NCBI GenBank assembly: GCA_003971905.1 | Contig: RSEE01000018.1 | Span: 434,001 to 498,000, forward strand | Direction of reading: 5' to 3' | Source of the DNA: Moniliella sp. 'wahieum' | Lineage: Eukaryota | DNA length: 64,000 bases | Shown here: positions 1-64,000 of the stretch, one piece after another | Numbering within the stretch: position 1 is the first letter of the stretch | Layout of the letters: every line of letters begins with the position of its first letter | Notes under the pieces: generated by a model | Told to the model about the DNA's origin: nothing | The model's input: only the letters and a program-made list of their open reading frames with translations | Database searches by the model: none | Made by a program: the position numbers and the translations under genes

Positions 1-1811
1 TGCAGGTGAGGACTGCGACGGGGTGGGTTCCATGCACTCAAGATCCCAAGCCAGAACCAGTTGCACCGTGCCAACTTTCTGACCAGATGAAAGCTCGTCG
101 TCTCCCTCCGACACCTTGTTGTACGATTGGGGAAGCATTGGTTCATTGGCCACGACGAATTCTTGGATCAGCGAGATGCCAGCAACGGCCATTGCGAGGG
201 CAGCGCGTTCGCTTGGTTCTTTGCCAAACGTTGCTGATTCATTGGGCTTCTGGTAGTTGACGGGATGGTTCCGACTCAACAAGTCGGCCCAAAAGTCGGT
301 GGCAAAGGGGGCATAGTGCATGTAGGAATACTGAGGAGCTCCTTCCCCTGCCTTGTCCGTGGTCGACTGAGTGGAGATGTGCCTTGGATGATCCAGGGGC
401 TCAATGAGAGAAAGAATGCGTTTGCCGTGGGAAAAGACAGTGGTAACGGATGTGAGCCGGCGCGAATCGGTGCTGCTGATAGTCAGCTGGGTGCTGAACT
501 GGTCGAAGTCAGAGAAAAACGTCGGCCTGCGGGATGCTGAGGGGGGCGTAGATGTGAAGGAAGGGGCAAGACATTCGGTCGAACATGTGGAGCAACTGGG
601 GAAACCGGACTTGGCCCAAATGTATTGTGTCGATACTCTTGCTCCCGCCAATCAGGCTGGTGCAGGGAACAGCACCGGGATCCATGGTAGTGTACATGTG
701 CCGGTCCTCACTGTCGCTGCAGTGAACCCACATGGAAAAGCTCGAGGGGATCATGTTTGGCATTTGGTCCGGCGTGGGAGGCGCAGTGAGGGTAGGGTCC
801 GTAAAACGAGTAACGTTGCCCTTGATCGTTTCGGTCGCGTTTTCCCAGCCCGGAACACCATATGGGCCACTCAGGCCGCCGTACCCTGAACTAGCCAGCG
901 TAAGAGCATATATCCCATCCACCCGCCGGTACATAGAAGTCATCTTCGGAACGTGGTTCGGCGATGAGGTGCAGAAACTCAACGTCATCTTTACGTACAT
1001 TCTTGAGGACTTGGATGTGGCTCGACACCTGCTTGCGTGTGCGTTGTTTGCCCGTCTTGCGATGAATATAGTCAGCAATGAGCTCGTTGCGCCCACAGGC
1101 CTTGCCATGCACCAACACTTTGCGTCTCCCAAGTTTGGGGATGAATCGAAGCGCTGGTAAATATAAAATAAAGGTCAATGGTGAGTCTACAAAAGACAGC
1201 GGAGAAACACTCTGTTCGTTACTTACCCTCCCAAAACGCCACTTCAACATCGTCAGGCCATACATCCGTGTTCTTCGCAATCGTACCCTTGTGGACGCTG
1301 ACTTAATAGGGGTACTATTAGGCGTCGTTTGGTCCGGCAGATTAGGTTGCGAAGGTGGAACGGTAGAGCCCCCCTCAGAAGTAGTAGGATCCACTTGGGT
1401 GGATGGCGCAGGGTCAGGGGCAGGAGGGGGGTGCTTGGATCAGGGTCGGCTTTTCCGTCGGGGGGTTGGAGAGATGATGTGGATGAGCTGACCGTGGGGG
1501 CGAAGGCATCTTCCAAGCTGCTGGTGCTGGTACTGGGAGTGACCCCTGCCGTATCGACGGAAGCATGGGTGCGCCGGCGCTTATGGGTCGTGGCAGCCCG
1601 CATAGTCAGGTCGGGGTCGAGGCTGAGGTCGAGCTGAGTGGCCGGAGCGGCCGGGGCGTCCGGCACAGCTTCCTGGGTAAGGGCAGACGAGGGAGAAGGC
1701 GATATGTGGGCAGCAAGGCAGAAAGGAGGTCCTGGGGCGTGGCCGCTGTGCAGGCGGCGCAGAAGCTGTGGTTGCAGCGGGATCCGATGACGGCAGCCAC
1801 GGTTCAGGCAT
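1..1811 (-). CDS. TEC1: TEA/ATTS-domain transcription factor (Tec1/AbaA family); 3' end runs off the window; frameshifted
   Basis: Spliced translation [64 protein letters not shown] is a TEA domain. GTAAGT...CAG intron at 1154-1226. Start ATG uncertain (1811 or about 1603). Confidence 0.9.
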
Positions 1812-2838
1812 AGCAGCGGCAGGCGGGGGGCTGGGAAAAGGGAGCGTTGGCGGTGAACGCTGAACGTTGGCAGTGCCGTGGGGGAGAGGGGAGGCGTAAG
1901 ACGACGAGCCACGAGAGGGAAGCGATGGAGGTGGAGCAGAGGAGGCAGGGGAGGTACACAGAGAGGGGACCGCAGACGGAGCAGACGGGGGAGGGGGCAG
2001 AGAAGGAGCGGTTATTAATTATTGCTGCAATGGCCGAGCTGGGTTGTGCCGCTACTCCCTGCCGCCCAGTGCTGCACCCGCGCAGGCCAGCGCTCTGCGG
2101 CACCCGGCGACTATGCTGCGTGCATGAGGTCACCGGTCACCGATAGTGGGGAACGGGGGTCGATTGATCATATTGATGGCAGATGGCTGACCGGCATCCC
2201 TATATCCACACCGCACCCGAGTTGCAGCGGGTGAATATGGTGAATGGTGTCCAAGAGGAAAGCACGGCGCCACTTTGGGTACCCGGTAGCAGCGGCCAGT
2301 GTCCTGGTGGCTGGAGGCGAGCCGGTGGTGACCGATGATCGATGATCCGGTGAAATATGGTACGATGAGGTCGATGATGTGGATGATGCGCGACGCGTGA
2401 CGTGTGATATACGATACAATTGTCTCTGGTGTGGGACGCGTGGCGCGCGACCGGTACGTGTAGCTGCCCCGCAGGGTGCAGTCTGAGATCTGTTGAGATC
2501 TAAGATCTGGATCTGACCTCCATCTGGCCTTCCCTGTGCCTTCCCTCTTGAAGCTCTTGAAGAGCTTGCTTGACACTCCTGAAGCTCTTGAAGCTTGAAG
2601 CTCTTGAAGACGAAGAAGCTGCAATTGCCAACGCCACTTTCAGGCCTAAGCGTCACAGGCCACAGTAACCTATCGACATCCTGCATTGCTTATTGTTTTT
2701 TGCTACCAATCGGTCTGCCTTTGATTAGAGCCAACAACGGTCACGTCGTCACTAGTCAGTAACCAAGAGCTGAAGACGGAGCCTCAGTCTGAGCCTGAGC
2801 GCTCAGGCCGAGGGTTCGTCGTGACGCGTGACGCGTGT

Positions 2839-2891
2839 GAAGCTTGAAGCTTGAAGCTTGAAGCTTGAAGCTTGAAGCTTGAAGCTTGAAG
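2839..2891. repeat. (GAAGCTT)x7 tandem heptamer, longest perfect member of the TNA-palindrome repeat family
   Basis: Seven exact GAAGCTT units at 2839-2887, read directly. Confidence 0.97.
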
Positions 2892-4015
2892 AACGGGAAC
2901 GTTCACAAGCTCAACGTTCAAACGTTCACACAGTCACTAGTCACTAGCTCTTGTATCACTAGCAACTAGCCACTCTAGTGACTAGTCCCCTAGTCCTAGT
3001 CATGTGTTCCCGTTTAACAATGGTCGAACGCAGTACAGAGCGTTTGAATCAATCGAATCGATGAATGGAAATGGGCATACATACTAATTGATCATTGAAT
3101 ATGGATCGGATCCTCGATAATAGCGGAAATGGACCATGGTGCATGTGGAAGAGCACGCATGTGACGCGCTGGTACGGTAGTAGGTACATGGCGCAGACAG
3201 GCAATGGCCCGTCGACCCCTGCGCGTTGCGCGTTGCGTTCATGCACATTGGACCCAGCCGGCTGTTCCAGCGCAAAGCTTAAAGCTTAACGCCTAGCACT
3301 GAAACGTAAGCTTTCAGGCCTAAGGCCTAAAGCCTAACCGGTACCCTTCCAATTTAACATTTTTAAAGCTCACCAATCGTGTCAGGATGCAGGACCACAG
3401 TACAGTACCAGTACCAGTACTCCGTGCCAATATTCAATCGACATCGATCAGGTGGAAGTTATCCTGGGATCTCATCGATCTCATCCTATACATCCTATCT
3501 CAGTCCGATCATCGATCATCGGTACTTCGGGGTACAAAACATGTTACAATCATTCATCGACATCATCGATCATCAATAGTATGGAGTGTCTCACGTTCAG
3601 TACGTAGTTCAGTGTTCAACGTTCACGCGTTCACGCGTTCACGTTCAGTAGTCAATTTGAGTACTCAGTTACTCAACTCTTCAACACACCCAACGTTCAA
3701 TACGTTCAATGTTCAACCTCAGTGCTCCTCGGTACTCGATACTCTGTATACTCAACCTCAGGCCTCAACATCAGTCCTCACGATATACCCAACTCAGTAA
3801 CTAGCTTGACTCGTAAATCGTCATGGATCTTGAGGGCCTCAGGCTGAGGACCGTACCAGTGTCGGTACACCAAGTACTCGTATAATACACAACACCCGTA
3901 CACCCAGTATTCAGTGGCCTGGGCCTGACCCTCAGGCCTCAGGCTGAGGCCTCAGGCCCTCAGGGAGGGGATTTGAACTTTGGGCCTGTGCAAAGAAGGC
4001 TGGAAGCTGGACTAT

Positions 4016-4051
4016 CGGTCACCGGTCACCGGTCACCGGTCACCGGTCACC
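4016..4051. repeat. (ACCGGTC)x4 tandem heptamer
   Basis: Exact units at 4021-4048 with partial units on both sides. Confidence 0.95.
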
Positions 4052-4524
4052 AGCGAATGATCAGGCAATCATTTAATGACGCATGAAGCGCTCAGACTTA
4101 GCGCGCGGGATCCAGTCCAGCAGTATACTGACGGAGATGTACTGCTAGTCCACAACTTTTTTGTTTGAATTCCTTTTGAGGCTCAGGCTCAGCGCTCAGG
4201 TTGGGTACTCAGGTACTCAGTACTCAGTGGGTACTCGTCTGAGAGATCTGAGATCTGAGGCCCTGAGGGCCCGAGGCCTGAGGCCTGAGGCACAAGGCGC
4301 TCAGCTGCTCAGGCCTCAGGCTGAGGACTCTCAGTCCGAGTAGTCACGTCGTCACAATCATTGTGAGTTGTGAGCATGGTAACCCGGTAACGCCTGGTAA
4401 CGCGTAACGCGTACGTTTACCTAGTTCCGTTCCTAGTTAGTTACTAGTTACTAGTTACTAGTAACTGTCGTGACGCGTGACCGTGATGCATGGACTATAT
4501 TCGCCGTCTTAATCATCCCACATA

Positions 4525-4600
4525 CTCTGTAACCGACAGAGCTTAAGGCTGGGACGAAGAAGAACGCTGCGCCTAAACCGACCAGCCTTTCCTGCTTGTG
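4525..4600 (-). mobile_element. Short 3'-end remnant of the CRE/Cnl1-like non-LTR element (copy A, divergent)
   Basis: Minus strand reads GGTCGGTTTAGGCGCAGCGTT...TCCCAGCCTTAAGCTCTGT, matching the 3' ends of the copies at 8873 and 12680-12745. Confidence 0.7.
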
Positions 4601-6223
4601 GAAGCGGGTCGGGGTGGTGGTGGGGACCGTCGCTTGTGGACGTTGAAGGAATTCGTGGGCGCAGTGGGGAGTCGGAGGGAGGGAAGAAGAGCAAGAAAAG
4701 GGGACAAGGGATTGATCGTAATATATGTAGGGGCAAGGAGGCTAGATCTCTAGCTCTCTCTCCACATCTGGGGTACGCGCGTGTGGCAGGCGAATGATGC
4801 TGTAGTCTTAGATCTTAATACAAGTGGGTCGGAACCCTGGCATTGGTCAACCCCAAAAAGCTCTATATCATAGCGCTGAAGCTATGAAGGAGGTCAAAAT
4901 AAACCCCCGGAACGGAGCCCATGCGCTTTCCATTGCAAGTCGCAACAGGTCAGCCCGTGTGTTTTACATGCTTGCCAGTTTCTGCCGCCACTACGAATGA
5001 GCTGCGCACACTATCGGCTTCAAGCTTCAACAGATTCATGATTTCCACGGCTCCTTCGTATCGAGTACCTTCCTTCGTATCCACTTTTTGCAGCTTTCAA
5101 CCCAACGTCAGGCCTGAACGGCTCTGAACGTTGAACTTTGAACGTTGAACTACTCTATCGACGATTCTCTCCACTATACATTTCTGCGGAGGCAAGTGAT
5201 TACAGTGGCTACTCTTTTGGTATAGCTATCTGCATATAGGCCTACGCTTCTTCGACGCAGCATATTAGTAGCTGGCAAAAACGCAAAACCAGGGACCAAT
5301 ATTCTATTCGTGGAACCTACGCCTTTTCTCTCAAAGCAATATTGAGACGCTCGCTCCTTTTGCTATTCACGCGCTCATCGCCTCTGCCCCACATTCTCCA
5401 AGCCAAGCCTTCTGTACGCGTCACCAGTCCTAGTCATTCTTCAAGTCACCTGATGCACCTGTTGCATGGTAACCTAGTTTTCCTCTGTTCGTGTGACATG
5501 TGACATGTGATATATGATATGTGACATGTGACAAGCGTCCACTTTATATATTCAGTAGTGCTGCCATCTGCATCACCAGGCCCCAGGCCGGACCGGGACC
5601 GGAGAGTCCAGTCAGAGACCAGGGGGTGGTACGATTATTCATGTCGATGAGAGGAAAAGCAGCAGGCCGTGGACATTTGACTTAGACCAAAAAAGGTGGC
5701 TTATTAAAAAGAGGGACAACACAGAAGAAGAGCAACACCTTTGTCTCCAGGGAATCGGAGAGTGTGCGAGACACGGGAGCCTGTGTGCCTTAGTGGTAAT
5801 TGGAGTGGGATGCAGTAGGACACAATCTAAGGGTAAGCGGTAACCGGTAACCGGTAATCGATCCGTAATCGAGTATCGAGTACTGAGTACTGACTGCCAA
5901 ATGGAGAAGTATGAGACCGATGAAACGTGTGAGACGTGTACGATGGCTCGGAAGAAGACGTTGTATCATCCGATTAAATCTGTGGGACGCATCCCGTATA
6001 TGCGTCTTTTAATAGGCCCCATTATCCGTCCAAATTGCTGTTCCGATGGAAAACAAGGTCAAGATACTATATGGGTCATCTCCTCCAATGGGCCAAATGT
6101 ACTGCCACACCACACCACCTCTCCTCTTTGCTGGCTTCTTGGATCTCTCCCTTTTGCTTCTCTCACGCCCTTGTCCTGAAGCCCTCTAGGATCCGATTGG
6201 CATAGATAGTATTCACTGACCTT

Positions 6224-6325
6224 GGTGGCGCTTCCAAGTAACCCCCGCAAGATGAACGGTTCGGTTTAGACGTAGCGTTTCCCCTGTCCCACAGCCTTAG
6301 GCTCTCTGTCAATGAAATGGACGCG
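6224..6325 (+). mobile_element. Short 3'-end remnant of the CRE/Cnl1-like element (copy B)
   Basis: GGTGGCGCTTCCAAGTAAC...CGGTTCGGTTTAGACGTAGCGTTTCCCCTGTCCC...CTCTGTCAATGAAATGGA aligns by eye to 12643-12740. Confidence 0.8.
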
Positions 6326-6800
6326 GTCTAGAGAAAGAACCTCAATCTCATTGACGGCCAATCCTTATCGACATTCACTATCATTATTCGAGTCGCGATC
6401 ATATAAGCACTGGTCATCAGGGTCATGAAATGACCCTGATGATGCAATGATGGTTGTACCACTGTGCTGTGTACTGAGTGTCGACTACTTATCAGTGCAT
6501 TTAGTATTTAGCCTCTCACCGGTCACCAGACGCGGCTCGTCGCGCTCATCGTGCGTTTGTGGCTACTGAGGGCCCCTTCACTTCTCCCTCCCGAAGCCTG
6601 TATATAGGAGCTCCGAGATGTTCTCGCGCTTTTATTTTCTGAGTGGGGCCCCCGGGCTTATACCCCCACGCACCACCAACCGCTATAGGGCAATACCACC
6701 ACCCTCAAGAGGGCTCTCAGAATCTCATATCCCAGGTTACTTTCATGAAGCTTGAAGGACCTCAAGCTTCAAGCTTCAGGCATCGGCTTCGAGAACTATA

Positions 6801-6874
6801 AGCTTCAAGCTTCAAGCCCTTCAAGCTCTTCAAGCTTCAAGCCCTTCAAGCTCTTCAAGCTTCAAGCCCTTCAA
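6801..6874. repeat. 25-bp higher-order repeat built from AGCTTCA + AGCCCTTCA + AGCTCTTCA
   Basis: Units parse as 7,7,9,9,7,9,9,7,9 nt. Confidence 0.9.
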
Positions 6875-7036
6875 TCTTGGAGCTAGCTTGAAGGGTCAGA
6901 ACCCAGATCTCAGGCTATAGGCCGGTCAGGTCATCATGCATAGGTCTCAGGACCCCATTTACCAGTTACCGGTTACCCACCTTCCTCCCTTAATTTTCAG
7001 TCCACAAAAGAAGCATCTGTAGCTGTATCTCCCTTG

Positions 7037-7095
7037 TGCATCCATATCATTGACAGAGCTTAAGGCTGGGACAGGGAAACGCTACACCGACCCGG
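7037..7095 (-). mobile_element. Short 3'-end remnant of the CRE/Cnl1-like element (copy C)
   Basis: Plus strand TGCATCCATATCATTGACAGAGCTTAAGGCTGGGACAGGGAAACGCTAC is near-identical to 8876-8930. Confidence 0.8.
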
Positions 7096-7994
7096 AGGAC
7101 CATGTGAGTTGCAAATTACACAAAGAGTTGCGCGTCTACACGTCTACGTTCCCGTAACGCGTAACGCGTAACGCTTGGTGCATGCAATGGTGTGCGTGAC
7201 GCGTGACGGTGTCTTACTAGCACTCGCGTCACGCGTCACTAGTCACTGTTAACGCGCTGACGGGACAACATCGAATACTGACAATGGCAGAGTGCAAAAC
7301 ACTCTCAACGTTCAAAACACTCTCCCGAAGAGGGTTTTGGTGTGTCCCTTTAGCTTACAAGTAACGCGTATAATGCGCGTAATTGAACACCGTCCTTCGG
7401 GATATACTTCCTGCTACCGCTTATCCCCTCATTAATCATCACATGTCGCATGCATTATTGCCAAAACTTCCTCAGACTGTTGCTGTGTGGATGACGCCGA
7501 TATGATAATAGTAGCCTGTGGGAGTAGTGACATCATTGAAGCAACAGTCGCATTTAGTGATATCAAATGACCGACAACAGCGGCTCAGGCAGGCGATCAT
7601 ACGCAATGACTATAGTGACTGCAGGATCTCATCGCCAAGCCCGGGGCCGACGCGGTATTTGTTTAGATGCTCGAGGACTGCGTGATAGCTCGGTGACGGT
7701 CATTAGATCGATCCGAAAGTCCAGAGCCGCGTAAGGGGGGATGTACATGTAACCGCGGGAATTCGAAAGGGATAGAAAGATGAGTTTTTCAGAGTATCTT
7801 TCTATCTTTCTTCCTCGCGGCGTTACAACGGTGGTTCTTTCGTCTTCCCCGGTCAAGCACCATGAGATTATAGGGTCACCCACCACACAACGGACGACTG
7901 TGTTGTTCCTATTTCCCTTTGTGGAGAGCGATACTAATTCTCTCCGGCCTCTCACTTGTATATATGTCCTTCCCGTCTCGTCCGCGCCAAGCCA

Positions 7995-8660: not shown

Positions 8661-8872
8661 AATAAAACTGTAGACAACGGAACGGGGGAGAGTGGACAAT
8701 GGGACGATGGAGCAGTGGCCCAGCGCCCAATATAAGCCGGACCGTGGGCCCTATGGTCTGCTATTAGTTTACTATCTCAGAAAGGCGTGTAGTATTGAGC
8801 GGTGGAAATGTTCGGAATATCTCGCTGGAGCTGGACCGAAGAAGCCAAAAAGAAAATGACTTTTTTGCTACT

Positions 8873-12070: not shown

Positions 12071-12284
12071 GTGTGCAACTGAAGAGAACACTGTGGTTGT
12101 GGCACCAACTATATATAGCCCACAATATAAGCGCGACGGTTCCCTTCTCTCGGTGCATTCCGGATTACTCTTTCCTGGTGGGGAGGAATCTTCTCTAGCC
12201 ACTGCAGCTCATATTCGTGCAATGTAACCCCCACGAAAACTATTTGCTCCAAGTCTGATGGTTTTCTACAGTCTTGTGAATTAG

Positions 12285-23709: not shown

Positions 23710-24211
23710 TCACAGGTGTGGGTACCTGCATCAGGCTGGGCATAAGTTCGTCCTCACCTTCCCCATCTCTACACTACCCCCTCTTTCCTTTACTTCATTT
23801 CTGATTCATCCTGTCCTGCCTGTCTGGACTCCCCTGTGGGGCATTCGCGTACCCATCGTTGGCGCGTATCTCTTCCAACTCTGAACATGATGCGTGCTTG
23901 GGCCCTACTTGTGCCCCTTCCCGCCTACAGTCCCTCCATTTGAGCCACGCACTGTATATACCTACTCGAGGCCTATGTTGCGTATATGTATCTCCCCTCG
24001 AGGCCCATTTGTCCTAAGATTGCGTCTTCATCATACTGTTTCCAACGCAACAGTATGAATCCCGCCATCAATCATAAAATCAGTTGCAGTTCAGTTAATA
24101 CTCGGGAACACAGAGCAACGGAACCGGTCGCAGCAGGAGCTCGAGTGTTGATGGGAAGGACTTGGTAAGGTCTAGAATTACATTACATGGAGGCGCCTGA
24201 GAGCGATAGAC

Positions 24212-24939
24212 TCAGACGACCGACATGACCAGCTTTTCGTCGAGGGCCTTCACTTCCGTGTGAATCGCATCGTACTCGGCTTGGTAATCCTCCTTGGCTG
24301 GTGCCGCCTTCTTGCCGCCCGAGGGAACGATCATGATGCAGGACGTAGCCCGCTTGGTCGACGAGGCAGATCCGAGACCGTCTTTGGAGGCAACAAAGAT
24401 GTAGGGCACGCCATTGTCTTCACACAGGATGGGCAAGTGAGAGAGGATGTCCATGGGGCTGATGTCGCCGGCCAGGACCACCAGGCCCTTCTCGCCTTTG
24501 CGGAGGCTCTTAACAACCTCTTTGACACCGCGGCGAACGTGGCCACGGCTCTTGCCAGCCTTCTTGATCGTCTTGAAGAGCTTCTTGGTAAGCTTCTTCT
24601 GGGCAAGAGGGTCTGGAAAGAGATGAGCTTGAGTTAGTCCTGGAACCGAGCAGGCTACGCGCAGCAGAGGGCACAGAGGAAGGAAAGAGAAGGCAAAGAA
24701 GCATAATACGCACGAGCAATGGGGCTCAAGTTTTCCGGCTCGGCCAGCTTCTCATCGCCCTCGGTGTCAATGGCAAACGTAGCGTCGCCGGCAGTGGTGT
24801 CAGCGTCCTTGGCCTTTTTGTCCTTCTTCTCCTTCTTGTCCTTCTTAGACTTTTTGCTGACGTGGGAGGCGTCGGCAGCAGAAACAGTGGAGGCATCAGC
24901 CATGGCCACGTCCTCGTTCTTCTTCTCGTGCTTGCCCAT
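24212..24939 (-). CDS. NHP2: H/ACA snoRNP subunit Nhp2 (L7Ae family)
   Basis: SPIA|HPLAQKKL...RRGVKEVVKSLRKGEKGLVVLAGDISPMDILSHLPILCEDNGVPYIFV. Intron 24613-24713. Confidence 0.95.
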
Positions 24940-25690
24940 TGTTGGTTTGGTCGGTGGTGGAAGCGTAACGAAGCGGGAGGGCTCGGCCCTCCAAATTTTG
25001 TCCACGGCTGCGGTTGCTTGCTTAGGGTAGGGGCGGAACAATTTTTTTCTTGGGTGCATTCCGCTCTGAGATCTGACTGAACGCCCGCCAGAACCTTCAT
25101 CGTTGATGCATGATGCGTGGTGCGTGATGCATCTTCAAGCTTCAAGCTTCAAGTTTCAAAGCTTCAAGCTGCAAGTTTGATTGCATATTTCAAAACTGGA
25201 TGCAATCATCATCACCCATTATCATCGCTCTTTGATCCTCGGCCTCGTCGCAAGCGTTGTGTTTTTGCTGATGAACGAGTTGATCAATCTGATCGATGAT
25301 GACGTTGATGTTGATCTTCAGCATCCTTTGACCATCTCGTACTCACCCCAACGCAGCTTCAGGCTTCAGACTTCAGATTTCTGGCCTCGAGGATCTTGAG
25401 GCCTATGCGGTTTCATAAACCCATTTATTCCGAACAGGCTCTAATCGATGGAAACATTATTATCGCGTATAGGCGGCGCCTGGTCGGTATTCGCCTGTAC
25501 GCAGTACGCACCTTCCTGGCAGGAATGGTAAGAAGCTCCTGGGCGTTCAGACAGGGACAAATTAATTAGCGCAGTCGCTTGACCTAAGATGATCTCGATG
25601 ATCGATCCTAGAGCAAGCAGAGCAAGCAACAAAAGCAGTGGTGCACGGATAGGGGCAGGGAAGTGGCGTTTTGGGAGGGAGGGGGTAACA

Positions 25691-27162: not shown

Positions 27163-27879
27163 GGCGGGGCGAGAGGACGAGTGGAAGTAAGTTGGGAGGA
27201 GCGCCCCGGCCACTCAGGCGTCTGGTTAAAAAGGCAATTGGAGGAAGCTTGGCTGCTCTGGCAAGGCCGCAGCCGGCGCTCGGGATGGTGTTCGCCAAGG
27301 ATCATCGATCATGCCATCATGCATCGTGCATCATGCATCATCGTCATCATCGATCATCGATCGGCGGCGGCCGTCTTGCATCCGCCGGGAGCGGGGCTTC
27401 AAGGCGCTAGCGAGCACTAGCAGGCACTAAACGCTAGGTGCCGGAGCCCACGTGGCTACGTCAAGCAGCTCAGCTTCATCGACCATCGATCATCGATCAT
27501 CTGATCGTACAAACAAGCGCTGTAAATATAAAAGCGCTAAGCGCTAATTTGCGCAACGATGCGCGTTGGGCGTTGGGCGTTAAACTCCTAGCACCAGCTA
27601 CCACTTTCGTTGCACCACCCACGGATGCACACACGGGGATGGCCCTTACGATGCAGCGCCAGCGCTGTCGGAAGATGAGGAAGACGAGTCGCCATGTAGG
27701 AACTAATAATCGAGAACCTCTCAACGGGACCGATGGGCGCGACGTGGTTAAGCACAACAATGCGTTCAACTACACTTGGCTTTCCCCTATGAATGCCATC
27801 GAATGAGCATTCGATTAAGTGTATTGATCTAATCGACAAGCAAGTTTGGATCGGACTCCAGTTCCGTACTCTGTGGCAT

Positions 27880-28640
27880 TTTCCTCTTGCGCAGAAGTAC
27901 AAAAGCATGGTCTGATGTCATCTCTTATTGAACACACTTTTTGGCTTGTACCCGCACCCAGTCTAAATTCACGAGACCTCGCTGGTGCCGATCCTCAAGC
28001 TTTCCTGCGTTTCCATGCCCCTGCACCCGCATCCACAACGCGCCGCGTGTGGAGAGAAGGACGATACGAGACGGGGAAGGAAGATCAGGCACACGAACTG
28101 CCGAGTGATGGTATTTGGAGCATTTTGGTAGGATCACAGGAATGAGAGTGGACCACACGCATTGTACGGCACTCGGGAATAAAGGAGACTATGATTGCGT
28201 ACCTCAAACGGTGATATACACGAAGAGGGAACCGCAACTCCTTTGGAATTCCAGGAAAAGGAGCTTCTTTGACCGTTGGAGCAAATGGAATGAGACAAGA
28301 AACTCCAAGTACCACAGTGGCCCATTTAAGAGCCTTTCTTCCCCTTGGTCATGACAACACACGGATGATATACCATCAAGGCGGCCGAGAAGACGTTTGC
28401 GTACTAGAAAGAAGTAAATAACGAGTCTCATTGGAGGTATATGGTTCGCCGCTCACATCTCTACCACGCTTATTCGCATCCACGCGCGCCCCCTCCAGAT
28501 TGGAAGCGAACGGAGGGGACCAAAGGTTTATGACCTTCTTCTGGAGGCTGCCCTGGTTCATTAAACGAGACTTGGTGCCATCAAGCAATACATGCCGGAT
28601 GTGAGCAGGTCGGTTTAGGCGCAGTGTTTCTTTGCCCCAC
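27880..28640 (+). mobile_element. Old degenerate CRE/Cnl1-like fragment (copy G)
   Basis: Collinear with copies E/F from the zinc-knuckle region (TGGCTTGTACCCGCACCC) through TTGGAATTCCAGGAAAAGGAGCT to GGTCGGTTTAGGCGCAG at 28608-28624. Confidence 0.7.
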
Positions 28641-29127
28641 TGGTCTGTGAAAGGTATATGAATGCAGCAGTAGGATTGAGCGATGTGAGATGTGACATGT
28701 GAGCGTTCAAGTTGAACTTCATTGTTGAACCAGCTCCTGTAGGGGCACCCAGATGTAGGCGCTGTAGACTTGCAAGTTGGTGTTGAGAGAAGGTGCGTCC
28801 AGGCACTTATGCCGTAGTAGCCTGGGGGAGAGTAGTGAGAGTGCGCTGAACGGCTGACCGCTGATAGCTGATATGCTGCAGCCCATCCTGCATCAGCATC
28901 CAGCGCCTAGCCCGCATTCCGCCAGTATGACTCTGCAGGCCCAACGGAATTCCGCACTGAGGCGCCAGCTGGCACGTGACCTGCTGTGATTCCGCTGGGC
29001 GGTCAGGCCGTGGCCGCTGCCGCGCGTCCAGGGCTGCGCGCACAGACCAAGTGGCGGTAACATCCGGGATGGTCGATGGCGGAGGCAAACTCCGATTGCG
29101 GCTGCGCCACCTCCACCACCGACCAGC

Positions 29128-46825: not shown

Positions 46826-47019
46826 TGGCGCAGGTGGGGCTAAGGCGGAGGGGGAAGGTGAAGAAAGAGGTGGAGGAGAGATGGAGATGGAGATGGAGAT
46901 GGAAGGGGACGGGGGGAAGAACGACAGCCAGTAGTACATAAAATGTTCTCACGCACGCAGCAACCTCTCAAAAGTCGGAGGTAGATAGTGGCATGGCCTG
47001 TGAATATGTAAGTTGCATG

Positions 47020-50000
47020 TGAATTGTGACACATGAATGCGGAGGGCAGTGCGTGATGTATAACGCGTGACGGCACCAACACATCATCGATCGGTAGCCA
47101 ACTAGTCAATCAATTATAGCAATCATCAACGTGTTCACGTTCAAGCTGCTCAAAGTTCGCGCTCACCGCCATGCGCCACGCACCACGCTCGTGCAGAAGG
47201 CATCGCAGGCGGCAGCTTGCTTGCCAACAATTGTCAATTTTACTCCGACCTCTGAGATCTGACACATGTTTGCGTTCAGGACCAGAGCATGCGGCAGGCC
47301 ATCGGCGTCGGCCGCCAGACACCGTGCGTAGGCCTTTCGACAAAGGACCGGAGAGTCTGATCGATGATCGATGATCCAAGGATCCAGAACCAGTGGTGCA
47401 CCAAACGCTCAGGCGCTCAGGGCCAGCCTGGGCAGCGGGGAGCCGAGCAAGACAGGCCATCAAAGTTGGCTCACTTTGGAGTGGGGGTGTGTGTGATGGG
47501 CTCCTCACGCGTCACGCGCACGAAACACTACGTTCTAAGTTTACGCTATTTACTAAACCGGTTAAACGTTAAAACGTTAACACTAAGTACGTTAACGTTA
47601 ACCACTGCGATCGTTGGAGCTCTACGGGAACCTCCGGAGCAGACTGGTACCCGCTCAGCTGAAGCGTACGCGCGAAGCACTGGAGCAGCTGGAACACAGC
47701 CAGAGAGGGCAAGAGCATGCTGCAGGTTGCTCTAGGAACAGACTAAATGCAATAAGCGCTTCGGTGGTACGAGCTAGCGTGCGTGCGGTTCCAGTACGCG
47801 CTACGCATTATGCGCGTGCAGGGGTCCCGGGTAGAGAAATGTACGTTTTTGCGCCGCCGCTTGTTGATAGTGTTGAACTTGAACGTTGAACATACGTGCG
47901 CGTGAAGCTTCAAGTGAAGCTTGAGCTTAAAGTTTAAGCCAGCAGTGACTAGTGAAGCTTGAAGCTTGAGCTTGAAGCTTGACTTATTGCGAAGCTTGAA
48001 GTTTGAAGCTCTTGAAGCTTGAAAGCTACAGCGCTAGGCGCTAGAGGTTAATGTAATCCGTGGACCCTTGTGGACCCCGAGTCGTTTGCCGTTGGGGATT
48101 TGCTCCCACGATGCACGATCCCACGCCCCACCTGCCCCACCATATACTGTGGGCCTGCACCTGCCTGTACCGGTCACTCCTGTTATGATCATCGGCATTT
48201 CGTAACGCAGTCACCTGGAGCGCCTGAGCAGCCCCTCTCCAGCTCAGGTGTGCATGTCACGCATGCCACGCATGACCAACCAACCGCCTCATTAATTCGA
48301 CAACACTTATTGAATTCAAGCTCAAGCTTTAAGCTCAAGCACTGCTCAAGTTGAGCCTCAAGCTGCTTAGAGCTTAGGTCAAGCTCAAGCTTCAAGGTTC
48401 AACTTGAACTTCAACACGTTCTTCACGCTGCTCAAGCTCTCAAGCTTCAAATCCAGCGATGCATCATGCATCATGCGCATCGTGTGAGCAGCTGAGCAGG
48501 ACTGAGCGCACCGAGCGGCTCAGGCTGAGCTCAGCTCTGGGCTCTGGGCTCCAAATTTCCGACACCCAATCATTAACATCACTACTAGTCAGTACTCAGT
48601 TACTCAGTCCCAATTAAGGCTTGAGTCAAACCCCTGGCCTCCTTCGGCCCTGTTACTTGTTGCGCAAACCCCAAAAAATGCATGCAACAAAAGCACAATA
48701 AAGCTGTGGCAGTTCTGGCCTGCTCTGGCGCTGTTTCCGGTTGCCTGTCACATGCATGTCACATGTCGTGCATCCCGCATGTTTCATGCCAATCACTTAC
48801 ACCCCACGTCACACGTCACCGCATCCAACGTGTGATTTACTGATTATTGGGACTGGCTCCCCAACTAAGCGATATGCCTTTAATGGGCATAGGCATATGT
48901 GTAGCCCCTAGATGCAAGATACTAGATGACCATACAAGCCGGCCCCACCTGTCTTCTCGGAGCTGACGCGCTAACGTGTGTGACACAGCGTTGTCCATCT
49001 TATTTCCGTGTCCACATCCCCGCATCCCGCAATTGCATTAAACACACCATTTACTATTCATCGAATTCATCTCTCAGCCACATGAGACCACAGTGTAGAA
49101 TTCATCTGTTGTGATCTCCCCGGGCCGCAGCGCGTAACGCGTAACCCCTGTGATCTTATGCTTGACTTGAAAGCTGCTTGAGCTCGAGCTTTCTCGAGCT
49201 TTCTCCTTTTTACTGAGCTACAGTTTGAGTTTCCGTCCAGCGTTGTTGCGCTGCGTATACTGTTTCTGCCACTCTTCTCTCCCCTGGGCCCCTACGTGGA
49301 ATCGATAACAACCGTGCCTGGACAAGCTGACAACCCTGGCAGCCTTGGCAGCCTGAGATGTGATCGCATCCCATGTCAAGGTTAAGCGAAACGGCAATCA
49401 AGGACTTTGGATATCAATAGACGATAGGGATTGAATACTGTGGTGAGCGAAATAGTGCTCGTTGTGTTCTCACCCAAATCCGCTCGAGGGGGTGGGTCAA
49501 TATTTTGGGATGCAGTAGAGGGCCTTCTTTTTCAATTGGAAAGCACAGGCTATTAGATCCAAGCACGTGCAGGGAGGTCACCTCTCCCAAGGATACACCC
49601 GTACTAGTGCCTACATACGGATTCCCCAGCCCAGAGACCCCCCCCCACCCGCGCCGCGTGCTGCGCGTTCTAAGAAGTAACATGTAAGCTCTGCAAGCTC
49701 TAAGATCAACAAAAGGTGAACTGATCGATGATCGATCGACGCGGAGCAGCGAAAACGCCACAAACGGTAGGCAGCAGCCGGTAGCCGGTAGCCGGTAGCC
49801 GGTAGCCGGTAAGCGGTTAAGCTTTAAACGTTAAGCTTACGTTAAAAACACGGTTCACATGTTCATATCGGGCATCCGTGTACACCCCGACATAGTCAAC
49901 AACTGAATCTGCATGCACAGGTCGTGCGCATGAAACAAGTCATCCTCTGCATGTAGATGCATGATGCATGATGCGTACTGCACCCTTGCGCTTCGCAAGC

Positions 50001-50180
50001 GTGACATCCTGAGAGCTACGCGAGCAGCCCATTAGAACGCGCATTTGTATTTTAGCGGCACGTATAGCGCGTAGAGCCGCTTAGCCTATTGAAACACGTT
50101 TAAGCTTGGTTAAAGCGATTCTTACTGTAGTGTTTTAAGTACGTTAAACGTTAAGCGTAGCTCTTAGTACTTAGTACTCA
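47020..50180. repeat. Dense cluster of TNA-palindrome heptamer repeats upstream of the WOPR gene
   Basis: AACGTT runs 47555-47602, AAGCTT runs 47900-48030 and 48315-48450, ATGCAT 48458-48475, (GCCGGTA)x5 about 49777-49811, AGTACT 50163-50180. Confidence 0.9.
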
Positions 50181-50909
50181 TTAGGACTTCCTCTTCACAA
50201 TTTGCAGTGTAGCCCGTCGGTGATAGACGATCATTGATCTCTCTAAGTTCTATATCGGAGGGGGCACAAGAATCCGCGAAAAACCCTATTGCTCGCTGCC
50301 TGCACGTGTCAATGGGTGGGGGCTGGCTACGCCAACAATCGATCGGGCATATGACAGAGTGGCGTATAGTCGTGTCGCGTCGACGCGCCTCTCCACACTA
50401 CGTTAAAATGTCCCCCACCTGTGCTCAGTGGCGGTGCCCCCATTGCCGCACCAACACCACACTCGCGCACAGTGTCCCTCCAATCCACGCCGATAGTTGT
50501 ACCGTCATGCCCTCGCCTGGCCACAAAAAGACTGCCGACTGCCCACAATGCTTATATTTTGCAAGACGGATGACCACCCGACGCGTCTCTGCCCTGCCCC
50601 TAGTTCCGTTCGGATCCTCCAATGATCTAGCGTTTATGGATGGGTGTGTTATTTCATGCCTGCCATCCTATGGGGACTTCACTACTGGCTCGAAGGGAGC
50701 AGTGGTGCAAAGAGTACCCGTGATGGCACAACAGGCGGAGTGGTGCAGCAAGGCCGACATGTGCAGAGCAATTGGGGTCTGTGGGGCAAAAAGAGTGGGG
50801 GTGGGGGTGGAAAAGGTGATCGGTGGAACAAGGGAGGGGATGGATCAAGGATGATCGGTGGTACCGAGGATAAGGTGGGCTCAATCTATGCAACATGACT
50901 TACGACGAC

Positions 50910-51750
50910 CCTGTCACCGCGGGACCTGCCAGGGGGCTTGCCCAGGTTTGTGGGGTACAATCCCTTACGTGACGGAAGGACGACTCACGGTAGTTTCGGG
51001 CTCGGGCTACTTCGTGGATCCGGGCGGAGCTATAGGGACAAGGAGAGGCCTTTGGGCGTGAAGCCGAGGTGGCTGCAGTGTGACAAGAAGGCGGTGTATG
51101 CACCCGCTTGGGCCGTAGTAACGTGTCTGAAGCACCTGGTACTTACGACGGGTAGAGGTAGTGGAGGACAAATACTACCAGAGCTGAGGCTGGGCAGGGG
51201 CTGCTGTCGACGTGGCTGGAAAGAAACCCACGGGCGGGATGGAAAGGTAGTTGGCGAGGTTGGAAGATGAAGAAGAGGCAGCTAAGCGGAGACGGGGGGT
51301 TGTCTGTACTGAAGCAATTGGCTGGTAACAGTCAGGAGTTGGACAGGGAGGCGGGAAGGGACGAGAATGGACGGTGGGGAAAAGGATCCCCACACTGGTC
51401 GAGGATGTTGACTGTCGTTGACCCTTTAATTATTGGTAACCCCCTCCTGTCGACGCCCCATCGTACTGGCATAGATGTTGACAGAGCGAAGCAGACGACG
51501 CCGCGAAAGCTGCGAAGGTACTAAGAATATCATCCGATAGCACTTCCTCGTGCGTATATATGGGAGGGAATTAACAAATTGCAAAAGGTACCGGGTAGCC
51601 TTGAAGAGTAAACGAGAAGAATGGCGAGAGGGGAAAATGTCGGCAAGCGTAAGGAAGAGTCTTGTACACCGTATAATTGTATGGAAGGTGAGTCAGAGGA
51701 TTATTAAGGGGAGGAGAGGACGCGTCCTGATTTGGACTCTCGGGGAAGGG
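50910..51750 (-). repeat. Unidentified dispersed repeat, copy 2
   Basis: Inverted homolog of 11190-12070, e.g. GCCCAGGTTTGTGGGGTAC at 50940-50958. May extend within the heptamer-free block 50230-53350. Confidence 0.75.
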
Positions 51751-54180
51751 AGGAAGCTGGGTGGGCACAAGCCGGACAGGAATGAAAAGGGAGGAAGGCA
51801 CATCACAGAAAAGAACAACATAGGCTCCAAATCGGAGATGCTTCAACAGCAAGATCATCGGAGGGACCTTTTGAAGGTCGGACGAATTGTTCCACCCTGT
51901 TGTTGATGACGATAAGAAACGGCGATGGTTACTGGCACAAGTGGATGTTGTGTGGGTAATCCTTTCCGGGCTGGCTCCCAAAGAAACGGTGCTCCAAAAT
52001 GCTGCTGGGCCGTGATGCGCTTTCTTTTGGGGTCGAGTTCAACAATTAAGTTGATGACGGGCAAGGTCTTTAAACGAAACTAATCATACTACAACATGTA
52101 TTGTGCTTGGTCGTTGTCACTGTGCTTGAGCAAAATGGGGTGTGATGTATGGACGAGCTTTTGGTGATGCGCACGGAATGTAGCGTTTTTGGAGAAGAAG
52201 AGTGCCTCTCGCTTCTCGGGCGACCGGCGATCCAAAATACAGTCGGGCATCCCACCTAGCGCGCTCTGAAGCTCAGACAAGAGGGGAGTGTCGCTCTGGT
52301 CAAATTCCTGTGCCTCTGGGTTTGGCACCATGGGCGTACGCCTCTTGATTGGGCCAGGATACTTTCCCCTCAGGCCAAAGGGTGTATGACCCTATAGTTA
52401 ATAGTCAACTGCCTCAGAGAAGGGTGCATTGGCCCATCAGGGCCGACATTGTTCATCTTTTGACATACGTCTAGGAGGTAATACATGTGGGATTGGGACT
52501 CGGTACATGCCGTGTTTATCAGTCGTGTTGGTAATGCGATCTGTAAGTCTATATACTTTTGACATAAAAGACCATCATAAATGAATGCCCGCCTTTCTCG
52601 TCATGGAAATCATGCGAATACGACTGGCTTTTGAGAGGTGCACCATCAGCGCTAGGGTGCGACTTGGGAGCACTTGGGGATCCTATGGGAGATATCAGCT
52701 GCACAGCAGCCCTCATCAGACAAAAGTCGTGGAGGTAAAGTGGTGAAGAGCCACACTACGTCTTCTTATAGAGTTGTTAAGCCACATCCGATTGCAAAAG
52801 GAAGAGCACATCATAGATCAAGAAAGGTAATAACAGATGTGCGAGACAAAAAGGCGTTAAGCCAAAGTGAGGAGCCACAAGTCTTCAAGCAAAACATTTG
52901 AAGGGAAAGAGACATCAGGAGACAAAGAGGGAGATGGGGAGTATAACAGCCCAGAGGGGGGCTCAGCCTGGAAGCAGAACTCACCTTCCGTTCAAAAAAG
53001 CCAGCGTCACTCCGATCAAGAACTTAAGGACCGTGTAGGAGAACCCTCGCCCTACCCTCTCACATCCATTGGCGCACCCCATCATGCTGGCGATTGGAGA
53101 TGAGCTCCGGCGATGCCGAGACAAGTCGTGTTGCCTCTCAGATCTCAGAGGCGCACTGTCCGCGAACGCCTAAACCAAAAAGTGAAAGTCAGCCTCATCC
53201 TCCACGCTCTTGACATATTCCTCACGGATCGGGACATAATATTGTTGTTGGAGAGACGTCTCATGACATGTGACAACGGACCAGCAACACCAGTATATAG
53301 AGACGGGCGATGTTCACCCGAACGTTCGTTCACAGGACGTTCATTTTAGGAGGCTACATTGTGTGGGCCATAGCAGACCATACCCTTCTCTCGATTGATC
53401 GGCGCCCAGCTGAGACAGCCACACCAGGCGATGGATGATGGATGATGGTTCGTCCTGCAACACCGTGGTGCCTCTCCCGGCACAGCAGGTTCAACGTTCG
53501 CGACGTTCGCGACGTTTTGACGCGTTAACGAGTTAACCGCCTCCCAATCGAAGGTCCGACCGAGAGACGTGGGGTTTTGTAGTCAGCCGGCCAGGCCGGT
53601 CATCAGTCACGTGTCCTGTGGCTGGCCCTGGCTGCCCAGTTCCGCTACGCGTTGCACGCTGAAGGACTGCGTGGACCTGGCGCGGAAGCCATGCGGACCT
53701 GGCGGATCCGGAGCAGACGGACGAAGGCGGGCTGGGACAGCCAAGGGCGGCCATGCATCAGGCATGCTGCCGGTGAGCGGAGGGCCCGGGGGCACACTGC
53801 GCCCGAGCTGCGGTCATCGGTCCGATCGCAGAGAGCATCATGCATGGCGGCGGAGCGGAGGCATGGGGCGGGTGTGCACTACCGCCGCAAACCAAACTTT
53901 GTGGATGCGCCGTTAAGCGCTGCTCGATACGCGCCGCTGGAACGGCCCATTGGCGGGCAGGCTGGGACAGCACGGGACTGTGCCGCGTGCTGGCAGCGTC
54001 GCACCCGGTACAGCCCCTTGCCTCTGCTTGTCTGCGCCCGCCCGCCGCATTTTTTTTCGGGTCCCCTTGCTGGCGACGGCCGTAGCGGCTGCGGCGGCTG
54101 CGACCCCCACCGCCACCACCTCCTCCTCCTCCTGCCCCACCACCCTCGCCTCTCCTGCGCGCCCGGTGCGCCCCGCCCCG

Positions 54181-59234: not shown

Positions 59235-59315
59235 CGAACGACGCAGGGGTCGAACCTGCAACCTCCTGATTACAGCCAGTCGTAGTCAGACGCGCTACCA
59301 TTGCGCCAGCCGTCC
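59235..59315 (-). tRNA. tRNA-Arg(ACG) with a 9-nt intron
   Basis: Cloverleaf GGACGGC / GCGC-AATGGTA-GCGC / TCTGA-CTACGA[CTGGCTGTA]A-TCAGG / GCAGG-TTCGACC-CCTGC / GTCGTTC-G. Pol III T-run at 59210-59214. Confidence 0.93.
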
Positions 59316-61383: not shown

Positions 61384-62108
61384 CGGGACGGAGACGGGGG
61401 TTACTGGCGGTGCAGATGGAAGATTATCAGTGGCGATGTCTGCCTGAAGCCTGAGGGTCTAATCAACGTGATTTAGGGCCTTCCCTTCTCCTTTCCCTGG
61501 CATGCTGCTACCGACGACGGGGCTCTGCCACTCGGCTGCACAGAGCGTAGTTAAACAAAAGGAGCTTCCTCGCAACAACCTTGACCTTTGCAATTGCATG
61601 ACGAATGGGCGATGGGGAAGACGATGGAAAGAGCTAGGTGTGGGACAGGGGGGCGCAAACGAACATTGGGGATGGGGACGGGGGTGGGGATGACGATGGG
61701 GCTGTACCAGTGCTGTGCCGGCGGTACCAGGAGCGATTGGATTACGTGTACATGAAGGCGAGAGGTGCTGTTGGTGAAAGGGAAAAATGGGGTAGAAGAG
61801 GCTGGGGCAACAGGCACCTGTCGGGGCCAGTGGGCGAGGAGGGGTCTGCGATACGAAGATGTATGGTCACCGGTCACCGGTCATCGATCATCATCATTAA
61901 TCATCGACATCATCGATCATCAATCAGGTACGATCTGCGAGCCTACTGAGTTGTCCTTCGTGCCAAGGTGCGAATGACTGGTACGGCTGATGTAACCTGT
62001 AACGCGTAACACCGGGAACAGGTAGCTTAGGCCAGGGCCTATTACTTTCCCTCCGCCCGGTGCTGTGTGTTCCGGTCTTCCGGTTGTTTGGCTGGGGGCG
62101 GCCGAGGC

Positions 62109-62111
62109 GGG

Positions 62112-62147
<36 letters not shown>

Positions 62148-62148
62148 C
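62109..62148. repeat. (GGCA)n microsatellite
   Basis: About nine GGCA units, read directly. Confidence 0.9.
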
Positions 62149-62611
62149 GGGCACCGGGGACGCGGACGAAGGAACCCCAACCATCAGCGCCAGCAGCGCA
62201 TCAGCCATCCCCACCGTCTGGGTGCTGAGTGCGGGAGCCGCCCAGACAGTGCTCGCGCCTGTGCAATCACACGTGGGTCATCATGCATCATGCACCAACC
62301 TATCAACATTCAATTATTCAACACAGCCGTGCGGGGCACCGCTTCCTCTGCCTCCTTGCTCTCTCGCCCATCTGCATCAATATTCAATCCGTCGGGTAGC
62401 CTTCGATGCTGCACCACCACAGACCTGCCAGGGGGCATGCCAGTGGCTGTACCCTGGCACACGCCCAGGCGCACTAACCCCGCACCACTGCCCTCGTGCC
62501 GCAGCGGCATGCATCATGCTACTAACCCCGCCCATATATCCATCCAATTACCCCACCAGCGCCTGCGCCCGGCCTCCCGCCATGTCCGCCGCCTCCGCCT
62601 CTTCTACTTAA

Positions 62612-64000
62612 ATGGCCTACCTCCTCCGCCTCCTCCGCCGCTATCAGCACCACCCCCACCCACCCCCACTCCTTCCCCTGCCTCGGCCACTGCACTCGCT
62701 AGCCAAGATGGATTCGACAGGCTTCGTGCCGCTGCGGTCTTCCCAGCCCCCGACAGACCGCCCCTTTGTCCTCCGCATGGCTGTCCGCCCCGGCACACCT
62801 ATCAACCACACCCCGCTCACCCCCGTGTCGTTTCTGCTGCGCTCCGCCCTCATTGCGCCTACGGCCCAGGCGGTCGTCCCACCCCGAGCGCAGCTACGGC
62901 TTCACCTACGGCCAATGGGCCGCTCGCTGCCTCAGCCTCACCTATGCCATCCGCTCCGCCCCCTCCTTCCAGCCGGGCACTCCGGTCGCCGTGGTTGCTC
63001 CCAACTGTCCTTTGATTCTCGAAGCCCACCAGTCCGTCCTAGCTGCAGATTCCTTTGTACTTCCTGTCAACGTCCGCAACACTCCCGCCGAGATTAGCTA
63101 CATCTTGGAGCACAGTGGCGCCAGCCTCATCCTCGTCGACCATGCCTTTACTCACCTCATCGAGCCTTACCATACCGAGAAGCGAGGGATCACAGTGGTT
63201 GTTAGCCACGACACGGGCGGAGCTGAGGGTTGTCGGTCGACCCATATGAGCAATTCCTCGATCAAGGCTGGCTTCGATGGCAACAAGCCAACGAACAAGC
63301 GGCTCAGCTGGCCCAATCTCAGGGTCGCAGTCTAGCCACTGCCCCTCGTGATTGGGAAACGGTGCCAATGCCCGAGTCGGAGTTTAATCCGAGTTCGCTC
63401 TGCTACACCAGCGGAACAACCGGCAGGCCGAAAGGCGTCATCACCACCCTGCGCGGTTCCTACCTAGCCGCCTTGGCCAATGGTAAGTCCAGAGCCTCTC
63501 TTTTACTGCATGTACAGGTTCAAAAAGCGATGACCCGACGCTTCTCTTTCTGCTTCTAGCTTTCGAGATGCGTATGGACCACAATAGTGTCTATCTCTGG
63601 ATTCTCCCGGCGTTCCATGCGAGCGGCTGGACGTATCCTTGGGCTGTGACGGCAGCATTGTCGTGCAATTACACCCTTCGTCGGGTGGATTACGATGCGA
63701 TCTGGGAGGCCTATCTGCACGGAGGCGTTACCCACGCCTGTGGTGCCCCCACGGTTCAAGTAGGGATCGTGTCCCACCCGAAAGCCAAGAACGTCAAGAC
63801 GCCCACCCGTGCCACGATTCGCATCGGCGTAGCCGGCTCTGCCCCGACAGCTGCCCTGCTGGGACGGATGGAGAGCCTGGGCCTGATGCCCGTACCGCTA
63901 TACGGTATGACGGAGACCTACGGCCCCATCACGCGGCGGTACGATGAGAAGGGCGGATTGGGTGAGGCATGGCAGCATCTCACTCCGGACCAGCGAGCTC
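62612..64000 (+). CDS. Acyl-CoA synthetase / AMP-binding enzyme; runs off the window
   Basis: NHTPLTPVSFLLRSA, VAVVAPNCPLILEAH, LCYTSGTTGRPKGV, WILPAFHASGWTYPW, YGMTETYGP. Intron 63483-63559. Confidence 0.93.

Follow-up and report, generated by a model that had tools for sequence, protein, structure and literature searches.

The subject of this analysis is a 64-kb window (the whole stretch of DNA analysed, positions 434,001 to 498,000 of contig RSEE01000018.1 from Moniliella sp. 'wahieum') and the tandem repeats of 7-bp period in its non-coding DNA, in which T-N-A triplets (TNA) are separated by 4-bp palindromic cores. The window comes from the nuclear genome of a basidiomycete, and Pfam-supported exons were found for a TEA/ATTS factor (TEA domain at 894-1439, minus strand), Bsd2, an AAA ATPase, an amino-acid permease, L7Ae, PI31, CHD1, Ste24, a cNMP-binding protein and an AMP-binding enzyme. 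The closest named match of the CHD1 exon is from Tilletiaria anomala (77% identical; other matches reach 94% and 88%), and on this coding sequence the host is judged to be a relative of Tilletiaria, in agreement with the first-pass annotation of the window, which had spoken of a smut-related fungus.

The repeats lie only in non-coding DNA, and every stretch with Pfam-supported exons holds 0 runs. When field density was expressed as period-7 runs holding a hexamer with outer bases A and T (A....T) per kb, the densest field was the non-coding region upstream of the minus-strand TEA/ATTS gene (2001..7300; 51 runs, 15.1% of bases, 9.6 per kb). The first-pass annotation had located the repeats at 2330-7260, where they are indeed present but to which they are not confined, as further fields occur elsewhere in the window. 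A second large field spans 47001..53500 (27 runs, 4.2 per kb), and intergenic fields were observed between the cNMP-binding and AMP-binding genes (61401..62700; 8 runs, 6.2 per kb), adjoining the L7Ae gene (24201..25690; 6 runs, 4.0 per kb) and between an SIS-domain gene and the PI31 gene (27301..28990; 6 runs, 3.6 per kb), the last of which contains the TCGA and GCGC arrays among the 12 arrays quoted earlier.

All of these 12 arrays were found where they had been reported, with the tandem units given for them (direct check; Tandem Repeats Finder, TRF), and the heptamer repeats are confirmed as a real and very strong observation. The pattern aNb-[4-bp palindrome]-aNb was counted for 16 anchor pairs, with 100 dinucleotide shuffles as the control. 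Both enrichment and anchor specificity were evident: the TNA pair was observed 141 times against a shuffle mean of 9.4 (sd 3.1, max 19), and the 15 other pairs stayed near background (10-39 observed versus shuffle means of 8.8-24). Cores with TNA on one side only are just mildly raised (213 and 225 versus 176), compared with 141 versus 9.6 for both sides. That many palindromic cores obey one grammar also held, and it extends to all 16 cores, each of which occurs between two TNAs with the same N. The spacer N had been said to take all four bases, and it does so, yet 79 of 100 loci have C or G at this position despite the even base composition of the region.

Perfect period-7 runs of at least 14 bp number 75, of which 49 consist of a 6-bp palindrome plus one base, 9 hold a 4-bp palindrome only and 17 have no palindrome. 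Without exception (49/49), the hexamers of the first class are of the form A....T, and 12 different hexamers are used. Identical A....T hexamers are spaced by exactly 7 bp 36 times, by 6 bp once and by 8 bp three times, and hexamers with other outer bases gave 0 pairs at 7-bp spacing in the window. Similarly, in comparison with 30 shuffles, period-7 runs holding an A....T hexamer are far in excess at lengths of 12 (31 versus 0.5), 13 (21 versus 0.17) and 15 bp (14 versus 0), and runs with hexamers of other outer bases are at background level. The unit is best read as A-xyy'x'-T plus one spacer base. Unit sequence is not unconstrained here, as it would be in a slippage microsatellite, with 49 of the 75 perfect arrays falling under one grammar.

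Comparison of N between paired TNAs established the orientation of the copies. N is identical at 98 of 115 loci, complementary at 7 and otherwise different at 10, and the units are therefore direct repeats. An inverted duplication via hairpin replication or opening across the TNA, which predicts complementary N, was accordingly rejected. Run lengths peak at 12-13 bp (10 bp, n=3; 11 bp, n=10; 12 bp, n=23; 13 bp, n=19; 14 bp, n=6), and the ends of the 23 12-mers are not random: 11 start at T and end two bases past the second TNA, 10 are the mirror image and 2 are centred, so that 21 carry TNAxy-y'x'-TNAxy ends or their mirror (binomial p 0.0067). Together, the length peak and the non-random ends indicate that the elementary object is TNAxy-y'x'-TNAxy, and this 12-mer is the smallest and commonest form of the repeat. 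For example, TCACC-GG-TCACC at 6516..6527 (plus strand) is a minimal 12-mer, and it does not fold (0 kcal/mol). A 4-bp duplication with a 3-base filler was rejected because length 12 is more frequent than length 11. Scars of the PIF/Harbinger or CACTA type, that is, a 3-bp duplication with retained element ends, were rejected because every one of the 16 cores occurs, because no more than 3 runs end at 10 bp, and because the first two bases of the core equal the two bases past the second TNA, which makes the core flank-dependent.

The two bases between the copies are largely templated. Among the TNAxy-2nt-TNAxy 12-mers on both strands (n=184), the filler is y'x' in 147 (129 readable only in this way and 18 also as N'A), N'A only in 1 and neither in 36. 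Founder 12-mers were observed 72 and 75 times in the two orientations, compared with 0.3 and 0.13 in shuffles, a frequency that rules against chance founders. The TNAxy 5-mer recurs at period 7 in 84 and 100 cases against about 3 in shuffles, and with 84 at period 7 it recurs 14 times at period 6, 20 at 8 and 30 at 9, each again against about 3. Retention of y'x' after xy was seen in 15 of 43 period-8 forms and 19 of 56 period-9 forms, in which the extra bases precede the next T. In addition, fully palindromic cores are strongly enriched (104 versus 2.7 in shuffles) and cores with no complementary pair are not (27 versus 24.7); that is, the palindrome is all or nothing, and a class of plain duplications is absent. 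Cores with only the inner pair (23 versus 7.3) and only the outer pair (24 versus 8.8) are equally frequent, as expected from point mutation of full palindromes.

The flank dependence of the core is also visible where one TNA is shared by two different cores. Five such junctions were found, and in each of them every core consists of its own outer flank dinucleotide and the reverse complement of that dinucleotide. At 61865..61892 (plus strand), GG-TCA-[CCGG-TCA]2 / TCGA-TCA-TC derives its left core from GG and its right core from TC. The others, all on the plus strand, are AG-TGA-CTAG-TGA / AGCT-TGA-AGCT-TGA at 47944..47969; CGCG-TCA-CGCG-TCA / CTAG-TCA-CT at 7225..7247; a junction at 5492-5520 within the mixed array tgaCATG tgaCATG tgaTATA tgaTATG tgaCATG (5492..5533), where a symmetric core change from CATG to TATA stands beside its one-sided intermediate; and GT-TCA-ACGT-TCA at 3614..3643 (TRF), which is followed by a period-8 form, TCACG-CGT-TCACG, with a filler of 3 bases (y'x'T). 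The 12-mer ends, the fillers and the shared-TNA junctions all bear out the product formula that the first-pass annotation had written down, from ab-TNA-cd to ab-TNA-cd-d'c'-TNA-cd. The direct orientation of the repeats, the 12-mer as their commonest form, the two-sided arrays on one TNA and, as described below, growth in the absence of a palindrome go beyond what had been noted before.

Copy number changes in whole units regardless of symmetry, with arrays of 2 to 7.7 units (TRF). The longest array, (TGAAGCT)7 + TGAAG at 2838..2891 (plus strand; TRF), is 54 bp or 7x7+5 long, begins at T, ends with the two bases that follow the final TGA and folds as a single strand with a TGA triloop (-16.3 kcal/mol, z -6.4). 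Similarly, the array of ACCGGT+C at 4016..4051 (plus strand; 5.1 units, TRF) gives a strong fold (-11.9 kcal/mol, z -5.0), and in both the AAGCTT and the ACCGGT arrays the triloop is T-N-A. However, the TAG-anchored (GCCGGT+A)5 at 49776..49811 (plus strand, 36 bp) is built on a non-palindromic hexamer and folds no better than shuffles (z -1.0), although it has expanded to five copies. Growth thus needs no palindrome and looks like ordinary slippage, and the earlier proposal that repeated hits extend the array is not needed. Among non-palindromic runs of at least 13 bp, 42 of 57 differ by a single base pair from a hexamer palindrome, a mild excess over the roughly 64% expected. Further changes within arrays include a core switch from GATC to GGCC with the TGA anchor kept (4243..4291), a period-9 variant CTTGAAG-CT with the filler y'x'y'x' (2545..2609) and a 25-bp higher-order repeat in which 0 or 2 bases separate the CTTCAAG modules (6803..6877), all on the plus strand (TRF). 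The birth step is a different matter, since a 12-mer that has no fold argues against hairpin-driven slippage as its origin.

The same grammar was looked for in other genomes. A metagenome scan for (AAGCTT-N)x3 gave at least 121 loci; among those listed, most hold one isolated array, and the end phases of their AAGCTT arrays are governed by the search condition. Junction grammar was found, among the matches listed, in two contigs of one sample series, L075 (tcaAGCT tcaAGCT ttaTCGA ttaTCGA ttaTCAA) and L016 (taaACGT taaAGCT tgaAGCT tgaAGCT tgaAG). L075 encodes an M35 peptidase fragment and a kinase that is closest, among named proteins, to those of Laccaria bicolor (48% identity), which suggests that this contig comes from an Agaricomycete. 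When TNAxy-y'x'-TNAxy was counted per 100 kb with the searched core excluded, the density was 230 in the window, 8.8 in nine Agaricomycete-like contigs (10.5 times the mean of other anchors), 4.3 in the other metagenome loci (ratio 0.8) and 4.2 in 123 prokaryote loci that had been selected because they hold an ACCGGT array (ratio 2.1). The grammar is therefore present in Agaricomycete-like contigs at an approximately 25-fold lower density and is not found in the prokaryote controls, which show no TNA preference (TNA 514, GNC 533, CNG 509) and whose neighbouring heptamer arrays comprise 152 without a palindrome and 178 of the A....T type, mostly of the searched core.

Two further observations concern these loci. 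The contig L177, from a Synergistia metagenome-assembled genome, carries arrays of two A....T hexamers within 6 kb (268-5180), namely ACGCGT+G at 37 bp and 24 bp, ACGCGT+C twice and ACCGGT+C twice, and is the only multi-core locus among the 123 prokaryote loci. In the Agaricomycete-like contig L007, the 10-mer TCATCGATAA occurs three times with similar flanks (729, 8278 and 13791), which suggests a dispersed repeat carrying a T-N-A/palindrome unit.

An account that requires no special enzyme is that of hairpin-prone microsatellites, in which folded slipped strands slip more, quasi-palindrome template switching, an established mechanism, keeps the two halves complementary, and the 12-mers are arrays of which only the last unit is left. 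The arrays clearly slip, the long ones fold strongly around the T-N-A triloop as given above, and symmetric double changes of the kind expected from arm-to-arm correction occur (CATG to TATA, CCGG to TCGA twice, CGCG to CTAG, GATC to GGCC). However, this account leaves unexplained why the outer bases are A/T only (49 to 0 to 0 to 0), why the spacer is exactly one base and why 21 of 23 12-mers have TNAxy-y'x'-TNAxy ends. The 12-mer is unable to fold, chance founders would amount to about 0.1-0.3 per strand per window, a non-folding unit has expanded just as well, and the prokaryote loci selected for an array have mostly non-palindromic neighbours and no TNA preference. Taken together, we consider hairpin-prone slippage unlikely as the source of the grammar.

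The repeats look like the scar of a DNA-breaking activity rather than the result of ordinary repeat slippage. We favour, with a probability of roughly 0.4, a T-N-A-anchored staggered break with a two-base fill of the P-nucleotide type, followed by slippage. At birth, TNAxy would be duplicated and y'x' placed between the copies (abTNAxy to abTNAxy-y'x'-TNAxy, a change that is seen as a sequence pattern), and for any x and y the product would be the 6-bp palindrome A-xyy'x'-T plus one spacer base. The birth step would work on either strand alike and, with both strands used, a single TNA could give rise to one array that extends leftwards, built on the dinucleotide to its left, and to another that extends rightwards, built on the dinucleotide to its right. 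Growth would then proceed in 7-bp copy-number steps via replication slippage, as suggested by the arrays that have lost the rule; in the rare 8- and 9-bp variants the extra bases would sit between x' and the next T. The duplicated target points to a staggered break, probably made by a protein anchored on T-N-A, and the birth product would be the repair of this break, in which one flank end gains a two-base palindromic addition. Such an addition may be likened to a covalently closed hairpin end opened two bases off-centre, as in the excision of hAT, Transib and MULE elements and in V(D)J joining, and off-centre opening of such hairpins is, to our knowledge, the only well-known chemistry that adds flank-complementary bases. 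Whereas the product pattern is seen in the sequence, the agent itself is something we infer; candidates would include mobile elements, domesticated transposases and other nucleases, with a preference for gene-flanking non-coding DNA.

The repeats are kin to two known phenomena, namely tandem repeats and break-repair scars with P nucleotides, and no account of the grammar was found in the literature covered, from which subscription journals are excluded, consistent with the earlier remark that the family was not recognised as described. Like micro- and minisatellites, the repeats consist of head-to-tail copies of variable number, decay by point mutation and build higher-order units; unlike them, they comprise many unrelated units under one grammar, with fixed anchors and spacer, non-random end phases and a minimal form that cannot come from slippage. 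A symmetric, T-N-A-centred target preference is also known from DDE transposases and integrases, for example in the Tn10 hot-spot GCTNAGC, with which the y'x'-TNA-xy module shares its central symmetry, although the arms are arbitrary here and would be made by the event itself.

Flank hairpins and end-joined footprints are described for hAT, Transib, MULE and RAG in passages of one account, where, in footprints including those of V(D)J joining, the target is duplicated and the few bases between the copies are the reverse complement of the adjoining flank, explained by a flank hairpin opened off-centre (PMC5499845). The 5+2+5 form observed here fits that description, with TNAxy directly duplicated (N being identical at 98 of 115 loci) and y'x' as the filler in 147 of 184 12-mers. 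It departs from such footprints, in which both flanks can donate P nucleotides and scars vary in length and content, in having one filler length, one side and no mixed scars: N'A alone accounts for 1 of 184 fillers, and the double filler was seen once against 0.12 in shuffles. The T-N-A anchor also differs from the GC-rich 5-bp targets of Transib and the 8-bp duplications of hAT, as far as these are set out in passages of a second source (PMC1131882).

The nearest items met in the literature are heptamer repeats of bacteria, including the cyanobacterial short tandemly repeated repetitive (STRR) sequences, the Xanthomonas GGGAATC repeat (PMC4692102) and the Beggiatoaceae TAACTGA repeat (PMC4679880). 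They share with the present repeats an intergenic position, a 7-bp period and the possibility of several sequence classes per genome. However, they belong to another domain of life and are described as heptamer runs paired with inverted runs of the complement, whereas the unit here is itself palindromic and TNA-anchored.

Several results weigh against the T-N-A-anchored break as a simple transposon scar, and they are reflected in the probability given above. The evidence base is one 64-kb window. No transposase domain was found in it by Pfam, which covered 141 of 162 open reading frames (ORFs) of at least 125 aa and returned only housekeeping genes, nor in the 10 ORFs of an inverted-arm element at 8.9-12.8 kb under relaxed Pfam settings, which gave nothing usable; this element is the only repeat element present in the window, and its 278-aa ORF had no match in a protein atlas. 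The window was also scanned for terminal inverted repeats (at least 10 bp, with flanking duplications); no element with a duplication of 5-8 bp came to light, and none with a duplication of more than 4 bp. Hairpinned ends left by a hAT- or RAG-like enzyme, as the first-pass annotation had supposed, thus lack a counterpart in the window, in which no hairpin, transposase or unexcised element was seen. Transib, which makes 5-bp duplications, prefers GC-rich targets and, in the passages concerned, is placed among fungi only in soybean rust (PMC1131882).

The products themselves add further difficulties for this reading. Half-palindromic cores show only equal, modest excesses, and end joining would not be expected to yield so uniform a product. 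Arrays of two units are most frequent at 15-16 bp instead of 19, and the 7n+5 ends are kept by only 3 of 5 19-mers and by the 54-mer. By-products are lacking, with TNA-p4-p4-TNA seen once against 0.12 and TNA-TNA 70 times against 45.6. We know of no footprint density that approaches the roughly 10 per kb reached here. A symmetric transposon, with both flanks hairpinned and equivalent and with TNAxy as its 5-bp duplication, was rejected because it predicts N'A fillers as often as y'x', and a 7-bp duplication in which the two palindromic overhangs are freely retained because its predicted by-products are absent. A TNA-centred duplication of 7 bp restores the symmetry but requires an exact loss of 2 bases on the other flank.

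The cuts of type II topoisomerases are staggered by 4 bases, with base preferences that lie symmetrically on either side of the stagger, and these enzymes have been linked to short duplications, so that the 4-bp core with its A/T flanks could be read as a cleavage site whose faulty resealing at promoters writes the repeat. Consistent with this are the core of exactly 4 bp, the symmetric A and T flanks and the location in gene-flanking DNA. However, when such a stagger is filled in, 4 bp are duplicated directly and no palindrome or second TNA results, the model offers no templating of y'x' from xy, and the lineage-specific density is unexplained; a topoisomerase scar is thus highly improbable.

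Selection on functional elements is another conceivable explanation, whether these are seen as site arrays of a dimeric factor, as structural promoter elements or as three-frame stop codons. It would agree with the restriction of the repeats to non-coding, mostly promoter-containing spacers and with a grammar common to distant basidiomycete contigs, and, in the stop-codon version, with T-N-A being TAA or TGA on one strand, so that three units stop all frames of that strand. However, all 16 cores and four spacer bases are used, and there is therefore no single recognition sequence such as an array of transcription-factor sites would have; copies decay by point mutation like neutral DNA, and core identity tracks the flank dinucleotide, which is a mutational and not a selected signature. 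We give this explanation very little credence. A sequencing or assembly artefact is extremely improbable, as the arrays are dense only between genes and absent from coding stretches, show ordinary mutational decay and follow a grammar that recurs in independently assembled metagenome contigs.

If the favoured reading of a T-N-A-anchored break is true, tandem repeats arise anew at a defined triplet through a mutational process whose signature can be read, and this would provide a concrete answer, in one lineage, to the question of microsatellite birth. It would indicate that an as yet unrecognised nuclease or transposase acts at fungal promoters, and would offer thousands of dated, strand-resolved scars from which break repair could be studied in a fungus that is not a model organism. 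As much as 15% of the DNA near promoters would be fast-changing and hairpin-capable, with possible consequences for gene regulation and strain typing among smut relatives. A wider proposal, which we put forward as possible but rather doubtful, is that basidiomycetes possess an undescribed activity that breaks and rejoins DNA with T-N-A as its sole anchor and that would be due to a hairpin-forming transposase that has been domesticated or to a nuclease of a new kind. Each action of it would write a flank-templated palindromic heptamer into gene-flanking DNA, and microsatellites would therefore be created de novo; the activity would be, or formerly have been, some 25-50 times higher in this Tilletiaria-related lineage than in Agaricomycetes.

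The distribution of the repeats around the inverted-arm element bears on the timing of the process. The arms of this element, about 470 bp long and 88% identical, lie at 8860-9330 and 12290-12770 with about 3 kb between them. A before/after pair was sought between the two arms, and no 7-bp indel was found; furthermore, the region 7301-13700 holds 1.1 runs per kb versus 9.6 in the neighbouring 2001-7300. Because of these two results, the repeat-forming process is either old or targeted to particular chromatin.

The inverted-arm element itself is almost without heptamer repeats, unlike the adjoining DNA, and contains a run of 14 G at 10959-10972. Solo copies of the outer 40-80 bp of its arms (GACAGAGCTTAAGGCTGGGAC ... 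CGCCTAAACCGACC) were observed at 4535-4600, 6244-6289 (minus strand), 7052-7090 and 28602-28637 (minus strand). These copies resemble members of a small family of dispersed repeats, which may represent a non-autonomous element, and no clear target duplication was readable at these copies.

Elsewhere in the window, (GCCGAT)11 at 15667-15732 and (AAGGAA)n at 19449-19568 are in-frame hexamer repeats within open reading frames and represent ordinary coding low-complexity sequence that is not related to the heptamer grammar. In addition, a tRNA gene is present at 59235-59315 on the minus strand (Rfam RF00005, 49.6 bits), and a 13-bp GTAACGCGTAACG run lies at 59451, 136 bp from it.

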